A DNA stretch of 64,000 bases from Candidatus Nealsonbacteria bacterium (GTDB lineage: Bacteria > Patescibacteriota > Minisyncoccia > Minisyncoccales > RBG-13-42-11), in assembly GCA_019923625.1 (NCBI GenBank), contig JAHXGN010000001.1, positions 8,939 through 72,938 on the forward strand. Reading direction: 5' to 3'. Below the pieces are notes generated by a model, which was given only the letters and a program-made list of their open reading frames with translations, searched no databases and was not told the DNA's origin. Below, piece by piece: positions 24,264 through 28,381 of the stretch. The translations under genes were made by a program, and so were the position numbers. Numbering within the stretch: position 1 is the stretch's first letter; each line of letters begins with the position of its first letter.

Positions 24264-25159
24264 AAAACTACAAAAAACCCTAAATTGAGCAGTTTTTAGG
24301 GCACAAATCCGATTATTAATTTTAAAAAAGGGTTATTCTCAAGACAAAATTTCTAATGGGGTGAATTTGTTAGTTTTTTGGAGTTGTCCCGGATCTCGTT
24401 TTAAGGTGATAAGATCAACACCCTAAGGTTAGTTTGAGAATTCTCGCAAACCAACAATAATCCACGGACAGGTTCCCCTACCCGTGCCTTGTTCATGTTT
24501 TTCCCTATATCGCTATAGAGCATGGACTATATCATCATCCTCTGAATGTTCCATCGTGTAATGCTCCAAGAAGATAAGATTTAATTCGAAGAGAATTTTG
24601 TTCTCTTCTCAATACTTTGTTTTTACTTCGTAATTTTCTTTTAGGATTACTCCTAAAAGGTCGCAACAAGTAGTTTACATCTACGACTTACGCCTTCTCA
24701 CTGAGCTCAGCTTAACCCCGCCCTCTAAACTCTATAACTTCATTTAATAAATAAAGCGCAGAGGGCGAGGTTTCGGCTATTCTCCACCGTGACGTGGCTG
24801 ATTCACGGTTACTAGCGATTCCGGCTTCATGAGGTCAGGTTGCAGACCTCAATCCGAACTAAGGTAGCTTTTGATGAGATTAGCTCCGGCTTACGCCTTG
24901 GCAACTCTTTGTAACTACCATTGTATCATGTGTGCAGCCCAGGGCATCAAAGGGTCACGCTGATCTGGCGTCATCCCCACCTTCCTCCCCGCCCTCTAGG
25001 CTCTATAACTTCAATTTAAAATAAATACATAAAGCATAGAGGGCGAGGCAGTCTCCCGCGACACTTGTAACGCGGGATAGGGGTTGCGCAGGTTTCCCCA
25101 TTTAAGGAAGCACCTCAAGGCACCTGCTGACGACCATATTTCTCCATAATTACTTATGG

Positions 25160-26095
25160 TATGGACTATACCATTTCCCGTATTTAGTACGGGACCAGCG
25201 TTTAATGATGGGTTGTACCATCATTTAACTCTCTTAACCCTAGCAAGAGTTAAGTCTCTACGGGGTACGAGTACTAATTTTTGTAACTTCACTGAATAGG
25301 GTAAAATACTTTCCAAAAATTTTTTCACCTCATAACGAGAAATATAAAGACAAAATGTTTTCGCAGTTTTGTAGTAATAAACTCTTACATTACTAATGCC
25401 AATTCTTTTAAGAAGCTCTTTATCTTTCTCAGCTTCACCTTCTCTCCCATAAACAATCCGACAATCATTCCGTAAGTTTTTATCAATTGAACCATCTCCA
25501 TCGAATCTGCCAGCGAAATAGGCTTTTATTATATTCTCTTTCTCTTTCTTTAAACTTTCTAAATTAGCTTTAGCTCTTCTAAATTCTCTCAATAATGGAC
25601 GACTATTTACGAATAAATGGTTCCGGTTAAACTTTATTCTGTTTTTTGGAAAAATTCTTTTCAAAAATTTTCTAAACATTTCAATTAAATCAGGGTTGGT
25701 ATTACTTAATCCTACTGAACTTGCCCACCAATAACTGTCAGCGCACCAAAGACCGAGAATATAAGCGTCTTTCTCGTTTGAGAAGAAATTACAAAAATTA
25801 GTACTCGCACTTCCCACGGTGTTGCCCACCCCGCCCCCTAAGCTGTTTTTCAAGTTTTTTATTTCCATAATATATTCTTCTATTTTATCAAGAATATAAC
25901 CAATATTAAACAGCACAGGGGGCGGGGCTCGGGTTTCACCGTTATGAGCTGGTTTTTCATCGTGGATTACTCCACGAGGGGTCGTATCCCGCCCTCTAAG
26001 CCCGTCGAATTTTTATTTAGCGAATAATAAGATTTAATTTCTAATTGATTTCGCTTACTATTATTCTACGAGCATAGAGGGCGGGACCAACCATG
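25160..26095 (-). mobile_element. About 0.93-kb insertion (intron-like) in 16S after GGTGCTGCATGG (E. coli position ~1052), encoding a double-motif LAGLIDADG endonuclease (boundaries approximate)
   Basis: The 16S exon sequence resumes at GTCGTCAGCAGGTGCC. The insertion begins with the family-D hairpin tcccgccctcta...tagagggcggga. Confidence 0.6.
25221..25916 (-). CDS. LAGLIDADG homing endonuclease (two motifs: LGLWCADSYW and YFAGRFDGDGSI)
   Basis: Motifs read directly from the ORF translation. The ORF lies inside the 16S insertion. Confidence 0.75.
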   Translation of the reverse strand: MLFNIGYILDKIEEYIMEIKNLKNSLGGGVGNTVGSASTNFCNFFSNEKDAYILGLWCADSYWWASSVGLSNTNPDLIEMFRKFLKRIFPKNRIKFNRNHLFVNSRPLLREFRRAKANLESLKKEKENIIKAYFAGRFDGDGSIDKNLRNDCRIVYGREGEAEKDKELLKRIGISNVRVYYYKTAKTFCLYISRYEVKKFLESILPYSVKLQKLVLVPRRDLTLARVKRVK

Positions 26096-26374
26096 CAGCA
26101 CCTGTTCCACTATCCTTGTGGGTAGTTCCATTTTTCAACGGAATTTTAGTGGAATGTCAAGCCCTGGTAAGGTTCCTCGCTTGTTATCGAATTAAGCCAC
26201 ATGATCCACCGCTTGTGTGAGTCCCCGTCTATTCCTTTGAGTTTTAGCCTTGCGGCCGTACTTCCCAGGCGGGACACTTAACGCGTTAGCTTCGCCACTT
26301 GAAGGGTCGACACTTCAAATAGCTAGTGTCCATCGTTTACAGCGTGGACTACAAAGGTATCTCACTTTTGTTAC

Positions 26375-26925
26375 TTTCCTCCGTAAGCGGAGGAGGGATA
26401 GAGCATTTCTGTCTATCTCTCTACGTCGCCGTAGAGGTCGGACTATATCTTTATCTCAATTGAATTGACAACTGCTCTATAAAATCCATCTGTAATTATG
26501 CCAATTCTTATCCGTTCTTTATCCAGTCCAAATATATTCACCATACAATCTCGAAATAGTTGAATGAGAATTTCTGACGAGTTCGAAAAATAAATCCTCC
26601 AACTATTTTTCTTTTTAGGAGAAACACACCCATCAGTAAATAATATTGCCAATAGAGAAGCAAGGTCTTTACTTATCTGTTTTGAGATATCTGGCATATA
26701 GTCTCTGAGGATCCCGAACACATGATGCTTTATGTGCTGCGGTTTCCTGCTGATTGTCTGCACTAGTAGCTTTGTCACTTAAAGAGATAATTAATATAAT
26801 AATTATAACATATAAGTAGCTCTAGATACACAGGTTTTCCAGCATATAGCCAGATTATTTCTTCCTCCAAGACAAGGAAGGGATCCAAAAACTTCGAGAA
26901 TCAAACCGCGGTATGCGATGTCTTT
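26375..26925 (-). mobile_element. About 0.55-kb insertion in 16S near the GGATTAGATAC|CC region (position ~790), encoding a short single-motif LAGLIDADG protein (boundaries approximate)
   Basis: 16S sequence GAAAGCGTGGGGAGTAAAAAGGATTCAAGAGGATAC is interrupted here and resumes at GATACCTTTGTAGTCCACGCTGTAAACGATG. Confidence 0.55.
26443..26778 (-). CDS. LAGLIDADG-family protein (single motif LLAILFTDGCVS), possibly degenerate
   Basis: Motif in the translation. The ORF lies inside the 16S insertion. Confidence 0.55.
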   Translation of the reverse strand: MTKLLVQTISRKPQHIKHHVFGILRDYMPDISKQISKDLASLLAILFTDGCVSPKKKNSWRIYFSNSSEILIQLFRDCMVNIFGLDKERIRIGIITDGFYRAVVNSIEIKI

Positions 26926-28381
26926 TATTCTCGAGTATCCTCTTGAATCCTTTTTACTCCCCACGCTTTCGTCTCTCAGCGTCAGATCCGTTCCAGCTGA
27001 TTGCCTTCGCTTTTGGGGTTCCAGTCGATATCAACGGATTTCACCCCTACACCGACCATTCCATCAGCCCCTAACGGCCTCTAGTTAAGTAGTTTCTAGG
27101 GCACTCTTCAGGTTAAGCCCGAAGTTTTTAACCCTAGACTTACCAAACCGCCTACAGACTCTTTACGCCCAATAAATCCGGATAACGCTTGGGGGCTCTG
27201 TATTACCGCTGCTGCTGGCACAGAGTTAGCACCCCCTTATTCCTGGAATAATGTCACCCCGCCCCCTAGGCTCATCACCAAAGCTATCTAATTCACCACG
27301 TTAAAAAAAGATAATGAAACTAGATAAACTTAGTCACGAGCATAGGGGGCAGGGTTCTTCCTCCAGAAAAGCTCTTTACACCCCGAAGGGTTTCTTCAAG
27401 CACGCGGCGTCGCTGGTTCAGGCTTTCGCCCATTGACCAATATTCTCGGCTGCTGCCTCCCGTAGGAGTGGGGCCCGTGCGGTCATGTTCTCACACCGCC
27501 TACCCGTCATCGCCTTGGTGAGCCATTACCTCACCAACTAGCTGATAAGCCGCAGACCCATCCCTAAGCAGTTCTTGCGAACCTTTTACCAGGAACCGAT
27601 TTATATCTGTAAGAACTGCTCGGAATTTCCATACTTACAAACACAAATCGGTTCCCGGATCATTGGGTATTAGCTTGTCTTTCGACAAATTATTCCCATC
27701 TCAGGGGTTGGTTATCTACGTGTTACTAACCCGTTCGCCATTAGCCAATGCTCCGCATTGGCACGCTGATTTACGCGGATTAGGGCTCGCTTCGCTCGCA
27801 ACGCGGATTTACGCGGAAAAATTATCCGCGTTTATCCGCGTCCGGTTGCAAAGCAACCGCCAATCTACGTTTATCCGCGTGTCAGTGCGAAGCACTGACT
27901 CATACGACTTGCATGCCTTATCCACGCCGCCAGCGTTCATCCTGGACCAGGATCAAATCCTCAATAATACGCTGAAGTTGCGCTGAAAAAAGATTTCCGC
28001 TGAATTTTAATCAACGTACTCATCAGCGTCATATCAGCGGTGTCCCCGTAAGGGGACATTCGGGACAACTCAAAAAAACTAAATGAACGATAGTGAATTT
28101 ACCATTCACTCCGTTCCGATTCAATTTTCAAGGTTCTTTCCTTTTTATGTTTTTCTTCCCCGGTATTACTACCCGAAAAAGAAAATAATCAACAACTGCA
28201 ACACTTTTTCTTTTTTGTTTTCTTTGCCATGTTTTCTTTATTCTTTTACTTGTCTTTAAATTTTACTTTTTAAAAAAACTTTTGTCAAGTCCAGTCTTGT
28301 ACAACAAGATGAGCCCCAAATGAAAGCCATTTCTAACGCAAAACGACCCTGAAATTTGTGTTGAAAACAGCGGAGAAGAGA

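Follow-up and report, generated by a model that had tools for sequence, protein, structure and literature searches.

A 16S rRNA gene of Candidatus Nealsonbacteria with three introns and five copies of a probably mobile palindromic hairpin

We analyzed a 64,000-nucleotide (nt) stretch of contig JAHXGN010000001.1 from a Candidatus Nealsonbacteria bacterium (the whole stretch is called the window here, and positions are counted from its first letter), in which a 16S rRNA gene of about 3.5 kb carries introns and a family of related hairpins. The gene lies on the minus strand at positions 24462 to 27965, as placed by matches to the Rfam bacterial small-subunit (SSU) rRNA family RF00177, by blastn against Escherichia coli rrsA, and by comparison with contig BBPE01002831.1 (locus L002). 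One RF00177 match covers positions 26268 to 27960 (model positions 9 to 873, 633.6 bits), and the remaining SSU pieces were recovered by a permissive Rfam search of the window. The next gene downstream is rpoB, so no 23S gene follows; the organism is an ultra-small bacterium of the Patescibacteria (candidate phyla radiation, CPR) type, and its 16S gene is unlinked to 23S. Taking all evidence together, we consider it probable that this is a CPR-type gene that has gained three introns and five mobile palindromic hairpins and that the apparent loss of its decoding site is an artefact. The original prediction for this locus, that a CPR-type 16S gene has been lengthened by introns and houses a homing endonuclease gene, is borne out by Rfam and Pfam, and such genes were already known in CPR bacteria.

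By blastn, E. coli 16S positions 3 to 64 correspond to window positions 27965 to 27905, positions 506 to 789 to 27230 to 26946, positions 790 to 1061 to 26362 to 26088, positions 1061 to 1120 to 25134 to 25075, positions 1174 to 1373 to 24988 to 24785, and positions 1499 to 1523 to 24493 to 24469. E. coli positions 1374 to 1498 had no counterpart anywhere in the window. The 1400 decoding block, GTACACACCGCCCGTCA, which the original prediction had reported missing, was indeed absent from the whole 64 kb at up to three mismatches. It is present, however, on L002 and on BBPD01001135.1 (L003), two contigs from different assemblies that encode exactly the RpoB protein of the window. L002 is 99.4% identical to the window in the 16S region, and L003 is 97.8 to 100% identical where it overlaps. 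The two contigs belong to the same organism as the window, and in both of them AATACGTTCTTGAGTCTTGTACTCACCGCCCGTCA is undamaged and helix 44 has its normal form.

Aligned with these contigs, the window has five gaps in and next to the gene, and at each of them it contributes zero bases where L002 has sequence. Upstream of the 16S gene, 70 nt are missing at 28573 (versus L002). Within the gene (minus strand), 18 nt are missing at 27479/27478 (CAACAGGGGCACTGAGAT, universally conserved, E. coli positions ~315 to 330), 48 nt at 24785/24784 (AATACGTTCTTGAGTCTTGTACTCACCGCCCGTCAACGCAAGCGAGCT, the 1400 decoding block and the 5' strand of helix 44), 159 nt at 24634/24633 (the core of intron 3), and 29 nt at 24463/24462, including the true 16S 3' end GGATCATTCAATTT. 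The 48-, 159-, and 29-nt pieces are found on both contigs and the 18-nt piece on L002. When the 18-nt piece is present, the RF00177 score increases from 633.6 to 674.5 bits, and when the pieces are restored as in L002, Rfam recognizes model positions 1393 to 1491 (helix 44). The gene measures ~3.75 kb with its four missing pieces put back. Its 3' boundary in the window is at ~24462, with the last ~14 nt of the mature end among the missing bases. The rpoC gene of the window lacks 84, 26, 27, and 109 nt relative to L002, and its open reading frame (ORF) encodes 540 amino acids (aa) versus 1217 aa in L002. All length differences leave the window shorter, bar one stray base beside the 29-nt gap.

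A 16S gene truly lacking its decoding site (a pseudogene, or a split gene with its 3' domain elsewhere) would fit the absence of the block from all 64 kb, but we regard this as highly improbable. The block is in place in two independent assemblies of the same locus, similar dropouts affect rpoC and another conserved 16S block, the differences are one-directional, and the restored pieces let Rfam see both helix 44 and a third intron. For these reasons, the absent decoding site is best read as an assembly artefact, with the decoding centre of the organism intact. Each piece lost from the 16S gene is a universally conserved block or belongs to the stretch of intron 3 with ~85% identity to intron 1, and it is at such conserved or repeated sequence that metagenome assembly from short reads breaks down. 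Searches for GTACACACCGCCCGTCA and AAGTCGTAACAAGG gave nothing, which ruled out a split gene with its decoding site elsewhere in the 64 kb. The small deletions relative to L002 and L003 span window positions 11562 to 28713 and look like collapsed assembly gaps, and other genes of the window may carry similar damage. Repeats and conserved blocks of this kind cause breaks and errors when 16S genes are assembled from short reads, as the window shows, which is relevant to users of 16S sequences derived from metagenome-assembled genomes (MAGs).

To place the insertions, we compared the gene with ten relatives that a lineage-specific 22-mer from an exon had retrieved from metagenomes (exon identity, 80 to 91%), all of which are without the insertions. 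The intron boundaries are fixed by the uninterrupted junctions of these relatives, GGATT/AGATACC, CATGGTT/GTCGTCAGC, and AAGTCGT/AACAAGG for introns 1, 2, and 3, respectively. Intron 1 (26363 to 26945, minus strand, 583 nt) lies between U789 and A790 and matches the group I intron family RF00028 at 26419 to 26914 with 66.3 bits (gathering score, 50 bits). Intron 3 (24494 to 24682, minus strand) follows U1498, contains no ORF, and is 189 nt long in the window and 348 nt in L002, where the complete copy (L002 4436 to 4778) matches RF00028 with 79.6 bits; its placement rests on this match, the alignment, and the relatives. Intron 2 (25135 to 26088, minus strand, 954 nt) is located between U1060 and G1061. 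All three 5' exons end in U and the introns in G (...AAAGTG, ...ATATG, and ...ACATG), and the introns have the 3' motif GGTATAGTCC in common (repeat family D2). The introns can thus be described as gains relative to the intron-less relatives, and they would be expected to self-splice. Introns 1 and 3 (the latter with L002 4437 to 4786) are close paralogues, ~85% identical through the core, which indicates that an intron spread between two 16S sites.

The covariance model did not confirm intron 2, which reached only 19.1 bits against RF00028 (E = 0.13) over its 3' part, 25143 to 25353, in the permissive search. Its core is interrupted by two hairpins and an ORF. Reading by hand, we identified P1 with a U.G pair (exon GGUU/CGACC), P3 (CCAGC/GCUGG), P4 (ACGGUG/CACCGU), P7, and P8, and its GGUAUAGUCC motif is shared with introns 1 and 3. 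We infer that intron 2 is probably group I-like and of a subgroup different from that of introns 1 and 3.

The ~930-nt insertion with a LAGLIDADG ORF that had been predicted corresponds to intron 2. The homing endonuclease gene in it (25221 to 25868, minus strand, 215 aa) matches PF14528 (LAGLIDADG_3) with an E value of 5.6e-11 and 43 bits, against a cutoff of 22.5, in two stretches; its translation contains the motifs AYILGLWCADS and YFAGRFDGDGS with the acidic residue kept in both. The same 215-aa gene was called in L002. The other predicted element, an insertion near position 790 with an ORF at 26443 to 26778 (minus strand), is the group I intron 1, but the ORF remained below threshold (17.2 bits versus 22.5). 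It has one motif followed by a stop ~70 aa later and is weakly similar to the intron 2 ORF (E = 0.016), and we read it as a decayed, truncated LAGLIDADG remnant. Instead of two LAGLIDADG-encoding elements, the gene therefore has one credible endonuclease gene and one decayed one, in addition to a third group I intron that had gone unrecognized: the supposed insertion at ~1385 consists of helix 44, capped by a hairpin, and of intron 3 after it. The 215-aa endonuclease may drive, or may once have driven, homing at CATGGTT/GTCGTCAGC, a picture of homing and splicing that agrees with what is established for CPR rRNA insertions (PMC11270868).

Besides the introns, the gene contains a set of hairpins, which we defined by a two-arm pattern search of the 64 kb. 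The pattern gave exactly five hairpins and no other match, one more than the four related hairpins originally predicted, as the one at 25826 to 25928 in intron 2 had been overlooked. The arm motif GCCCYCTRNGC occurs 9 times versus 0.23 times expected, always within 24756 to 27350, and the remaining ~7.2 kb outside ORFs contained no hairpin copy. All copies were delimited by pattern and fold and are on the minus strand. Copy a (27254 to 27354; 93-nt core) replaces the terminal loop of helix 17 in the V3 region, a site without a hairpin in relatives. Copies b (25985 to 26086) and c (25826 to 25928) lie in intron 2, where manual fold reading places them at the tip of P1 and at a tip read as P5, respectively; the ATG of the endonuclease gene is in the loop of copy c. 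Copy d (24985 to 25048; 57-nt core) replaces the loop of helix 40 (E. coli ~1162 to 1174), and copy e (24714 to 24770; 50-nt core) forms the tip of helix 44. Copies a, b, and c belong to a long class (cores of 93 to 95 nt) and copies d and e to a short class. We ruled out that hairpin e is itself a reduced helix 44, since L002 and L003 show a normal helix 44 with the hairpin at its tip. An uptake sequence was also ruled out, as single arms never occur alone in the window; the sole stray arm-like 15-mer sits inside a ribosomal protein gene.

The element follows the scheme CCCCGCCCUCUA-U-GCU...AGC-U-UAGAGGGCGGGG. All five copies have a 12-bp basal stem (CCYCGCCCYCUR/YAGRGGGCGGGG), a 1x1 pyrimidine-pyrimidine mismatch, a GCU/AGC stem, and an AU-rich upper stem. 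Read in the rRNA sense, copies a, d, and e of the mature-rRNA helices have 9, 4, and 5 G.U pairs, respectively, and fold 12 to 24 kcal/mol better than in antisense, where G.U pairs are absent, whereas the folding of the intron copies b and c is nearly symmetric. The G.U asymmetry indicates that the rRNA copies have drifted under selection for pairing in the transcript. No Rfam family matched the hairpins of the window at E values up to 1.

The family was then gathered with the exact two-arm pattern from one-genome-per-species GTDB contigs, which yielded at least 120 stretches. Three of the matches listed look like chance occurrences in GC-rich genomes, and the remainder were counted as family: at least 123 copies in at least 66 genomes, with up to 12 in one MAG, among the matches listed. 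The pattern specified the arms and left diverged copies unsampled. The host genomes are mostly Patescibacteria (Staskawicz-, Nealson-, Wildermuth-, Taga-, Campbell-, Yanofsky-, Portnoy-, and Niyogibacteria and Wolfebacteria), and the hairpin also occurs in at least three MAGs of Omnitrophota, in one case on a 551-kb contig. The copies we take as genuine in Omnitrophota (L077 on the 551-kb contig, L046, L048, L049, L079, and L099) have the flanks GAATTRAA-CCCC...GGGG-TTTAATTC, and a related ACTTATGTTCGC motif is found 3' of them; the family thus crosses the boundary between two ultra-small-cell lineages.

That the hairpins are local to this rRNA gene, spread by duplication or gene conversion between its expansion sites, was suggested by their confinement to 3.6 kb and by the loops of copies d and e, which are nearly identical, as predicted (86% identity over 35 nt). 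This now seems hardly credible. The element recurs in 66 or more other genomes, where it lies mainly outside rRNA; copy a is nearer to 23S, 16S, and RNase P copies elsewhere than to copies b to e and belongs to a subfamily common to those hosts; and the helix 44 copy has a counterpart of the same subfamily in a related GTDB genome (L061). The predicted palindromic element does fill several expansion and insertion sites, but it was not seeded locally, and most members of its family are intergenic. No Rfam family matched the hairpin itself in 18 loci at the gathering score or in one full intergenic copy at E values up to 10, and within the limits of our search we found no description of the element in Rfam 15 or in the literature, where PMC11270868 and PMC8172020 were the only relevant papers. 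The hairpin is thus a widespread, apparently undescribed element and not an rRNA-local family.

Core lengths fall into two classes, 53 to 61 and 88 to 101 nt, although the pattern left room for other lengths. About 115 of 125 copies among the matches listed lie outside ORFs of at least 100 aa, mostly in short gaps between co-directional genes (26 in sense versus 16 in antisense orientation). Pfam annotation of 150 neighboring ORFs showed housekeeping genes, namely, those for MreB, PilB-type ATPase, L14, L16, MraZ, RpoB, RsmH, L20, and SSB. Structured-RNA hosts, in which the copies occupy helix tips, comprise introns, 23S helices 25 and 63, 16S helices 6 and 44, the 16S leader, and RNase P RNA in either orientation. 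The RNase P copies (L020, L055, L024, and L052, and probably also L017, L028, L036, and L085) occupy a site read as P3 and another helix. CPR RNase P RNAs have been noted to have "large extensions of helices" without explanation (PMC8172020), and the hairpins may account for some of the extended helices that make these RNAs hard to detect.

Some features of the copies were free to vary in the search. The mismatch partner is T in 118 of 126 copies and pairable in 3 of 126, so that the pair stays unpaired, and a variable position of the basal stem is T-A in 106 copies, C-G in 14, and mispaired in 6 (both among the matches listed). A 5' CCCC outside the search pattern is usually present. In the upper stem of 22 short copies, we counted 22 double-change cells versus 8.4 in shuffles (0 of 500 shuffles reached 22). 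These compensatory changes and the covarying position of the basal stem show that pairing has been maintained in the family. The stem extends in some genomes to TGAGCA...TGCTCA, whose TGA is often the stop codon of the upstream gene. A conserved 3' flank, TGCTCA-CTWCGTTCGC, in many genomes runs into the next ATG, that of rplK, recA, metK, mraZ, rsmH, mreB, rpsR, or rplT (loci including L008, L073, L098, L100, L104, L112, L115, L119, and L123), and hairpins with this flank are preceded by TTGAGC and a GCGAAGC-type mini-hairpin. Several candidate identities were rejected. The pattern had 0 matches in viral contigs, which speaks against a phage vector; by eye, the flanks had no convincing -35/-10 spacing for a sigma-70 promoter and a T-run for an intrinsic terminator in only ~10 copies; and the ten matches inside ORFs of at least 100 aa were chance matches in GC-rich genomes, spurious ORFs across rRNA, or misplaced start codons rather than in-frame protein insertions.

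In the ten relatives, the tips of helices 17, 40, and 44 are short loops on CCYC(G)/(C)GRGG-like stems without a hairpin, and the empty helix 40 site reads CCUCG-GAAA-CGAGG. The hairpins replace the terminal loops of these variable helices, as rRNA intervening sequences (IVSs) do. At the same distance (87% identity), L061 has the same-subfamily hairpin at the tip of helix 44 and none at helix 40, so presence is patchy among equally distant relatives. In L014 (283 to 357), the upper stem of one copy harbors a second, short hairpin of the family, and in some genomes the hairpin is contained in repeat units of 200 to 230 nt. The empty sites, the patchiness, the nested copy, and the repeat units point to copying into new sites. 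By comparison with relatives, the five hairpins of the window are insertions; the prediction was to be overturned by an intact decoding site together with hairpins that are ordinary variable regions, and we found the decoding site intact and the hairpins to be true insertions. L061 also has a different, AT-rich insertion of ~190 nt (2832 to 3028) at the tip of helix 17, the site of copy a in the window, and a further insertion of ~845 nt near 1380 to 1400 of its 16S gene.

We favor the explanation that the hairpin is a nonautonomous mobile palindromic element of the kind of miniature inverted-repeat transposable elements (MITEs) or repetitive extragenic palindromic (REP) sequences. Such an element would persist only at sites that tolerate a further coaxial stem-loop, and copies in rRNA helices would then be kept folded by selection at the RNA level. 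Several observations weigh against this explanation. There was no target-site duplication at the three rRNA sites where filled and empty versions could be compared, the 8-kb loci contained no visible parent element, and no transposase was among the 25 commonest Pfam families of the 150 neighboring ORFs (genomes were not searched whole). The invariance of the arms is partly circular, as the arms were set by the search pattern. The same intergenic sites (between nusG and rplK, between ftsK and recA, and upstream of mreB and of mraZ) are occupied across genomes by copies with diverged interiors, and these recurrent sites, together with the conserved flank at start codons, look more like retained function than like a parasite. 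Flank extensions of at least 5 bp were found in 16 intergenic copies versus ~10 in the control, which is not significant, and hairpin-loop targeting therefore holds only for structured-RNA hosts. Insertion always into a longer palindrome was rejected on the mean flank extension (2.64 versus 2.41 bp in the control).

In another explanation, the hairpin is a functional RNA module, i.e., a processing, stabilizing, or protein-binding signal, for example, for RNase III or another double-stranded RNA (dsRNA) protein. Its repeated use in rRNA, RNase P RNA, introns, and intercistronic mRNA regions would then have a parallel in the K-turn/L7Ae sites that several archaeal RNAs have in common. A functional module would account for the positions conserved outside the search pattern (the 5' CCCC and the T mismatch partner), the two discrete size classes, and the orthologous intergenic sites filled in different genomes with the same stem and diverged interiors, as well as for the conserved flanks abutting start codons and the location beside highly expressed housekeeping genes. 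Of 42 intergenic copies, 31 fold better as the transcribed strand than as its complement (P = 0.0013), the rRNA copies show the strong G.U asymmetry, and the palindromic stem reads alike in both orientations. However, base skew and the T.T versus A.A mismatch are confounders of the strand test, no candidate for a protein that binds the stem came up, and the 64-kb window yielded no intergenic copy for its organism. The patchy distribution among close relatives with clean empty sites, the nested copies, and the larger repeat units point to copying instead. We therefore consider a functional module, with the reuse that it implies, possible but unlikely. Also unlikely is a more specific proposal, that the hairpin is either a dsRNA signal of ultra-small bacteria (Patescibacteria and Omnitrophota), defined by its sequence, with a fixed U.U mismatch, read by a dedicated protein or nuclease and common to rRNAs, RNase P RNA, group I introns, and housekeeping mRNA leaders, or a new kind of mobile element that inserts specifically into hairpin loops.

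If the hairpins are mobile insertions, as we favor, the copies in the mature ribosome would either form small expansion segments or be trimmed by RNase III like classical IVSs. In the 30S structure, helices 17, 40, and 44 end in peripheral tips, which makes retention as small expansion segments plausible. RNase III excision is considered because family members sit at 23S helix 25, a classical IVS site. The two fates seem about equally likely.

Rfam alignment supports the predicted expansions of V1 and V3: the tip of helix 17 is expanded as described above, and helix 6 (V1) has a 137-nt expansion (27754 to 27890, minus strand) where the model has 3 nt. The helix 6 expansion is a long hairpin (-95 kcal/mol) with internal CGCGGATAAACG-type repeats (repeats D7 and D13), outside the hairpin family. 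Within 27763 to 27894 we also noted the short internal direct repeats ATCCGCGTTTATCCGCG and ACGCGGATTTACGCGGA and a GCGAGCGAAGCGAGC stretch, which resembles the GCGAAGC motif flanking intergenic hairpins of other genomes. A hairpin extension at helix 9/10 (27599 to 27647, minus strand) has 49 nt where the model has 3 and folds as a long hairpin. On the other side of the gene, comparison with L002, L003, and the relatives shows that the segment at 24403 to 24461 (minus strand), which contains ATCACCTT and had been taken for an insertion at ~1500, is a 3' trailer beyond the true 3' end at ~24462. The 16S 3' tail (L002 4808 to 4835) reads GGAUCAUUCAAUUU instead of GGAUCACCUCCUUA and has no CCUCC anti-Shine-Dalgarno sequence, which is absent in seven relatives too, and of the 44 window ORFs that reach 150 aa, only 3 are preceded by GGAG, GAGG, or AGGA. 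Given this tail and the few upstream motifs, Shine-Dalgarno pairing is apparently not used by the lineage. A tRNA gene at 52923 to 52995 (minus strand; Rfam, 63.7 bits) is unconnected to the 16S gene.

Intron-rich CPR rRNA genes with LAGLIDADG homing endonucleases were reportedly described by Brown et al. in 2015, and the gene in the window closely resembles those in a later survey (Tsurumaki et al. 2024, PMC11270868). As in that survey, several group I introns occupy conserved 16S positions; ORF-containing, ORF-less, and decayed-ORF introns occur together; and the 16S gene is unlinked to 23S. LAGLIDADG_3, reported there only from 16S insertions, is the domain found in the window. The survey proteins are mostly single-domain, whereas the endonuclease in the window has two motifs, but nothing essential differs. 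The intron-rich gene is therefore one more example of a known CPR peculiarity, and the decoding-site anomaly is of no interest. Insertions shorter than 100 bp were outside the counts of the survey, which left short nonintron insertions uncharacterized and presumed those at classical IVS sites to be IVSs (PMC11270868). The hairpin identifies part of these short, uncharacterized CPR rRNA insertions that surveys left unexplained.

IVSs removed by RNase III are known from 23S helices 25 and 45 of Salmonella, Yersinia, and Campylobacter and from Coxiella (PMC4990558). Like them, the hairpin is a stem-loop of ~50 to 100 nt in place of the terminal loop of a variable helix, is sporadically distributed, and has family members in 23S helix 25. 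Unlike them, it is one family found in many 16S, 23S, RNase P, and intron helices and at dozens of intergenic sites, and excision, a feature of IVSs, is for the hairpin one of two possible fates. A single family ties together rRNA, RNase P RNA, intron, and intergenic insertions across candidate phyla and across the Patescibacteria/Omnitrophota boundary. It is now testable whether these organisms have expansion segment-like or fragmented rRNA and what spreads or recognizes the element.

With REP sequences, REP doublets forming hairpins (REPINs), bacterial interspersed mosaic elements (BIMEs), and MITEs (PMC3184786, PMC3733652), the family has in common that its members are short, GC-rich, imperfect palindromes in many copies, mostly intergenic between co-directional genes, in a mosaic with flank motifs and with possible roles in mRNA stability. 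It differs from REP/REPIN elements in its ends, CCCCGCCC/GGGCGGGG, which carry no GTAG or CGTC tag, and in that no REP-associated tyrosine transposase (RAYT) or other transposase is among the commonest Pfam families of the neighboring ORFs (the genomes were not searched whole). Its stem is shared across phyla and not species-specific, and it has copies in structured RNA genes. By its defining features, then, the hairpin is not a REP element. Of the features of a MITE, the inverted arms are present, no target-site duplication was discernible at the three rRNA sites compared in filled and empty form, and no parent insertion sequence was visible in the 8-kb loci.

Selfish palindromes of AT-rich, reduced genomes include the Rickettsia palindromic elements, the GC clusters of yeast mitochondria, and the double-hairpin elements of fungal mitochondria. 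The G+C content of the window is 36%. The hairpin has no sequence relationship to any of these, and no credible in-frame protein insertion was seen among the copies listed. What it shares with them is its range of sites, as all of them occur between genes, in introns, and in variable parts of genes for rRNA or other RNAs.

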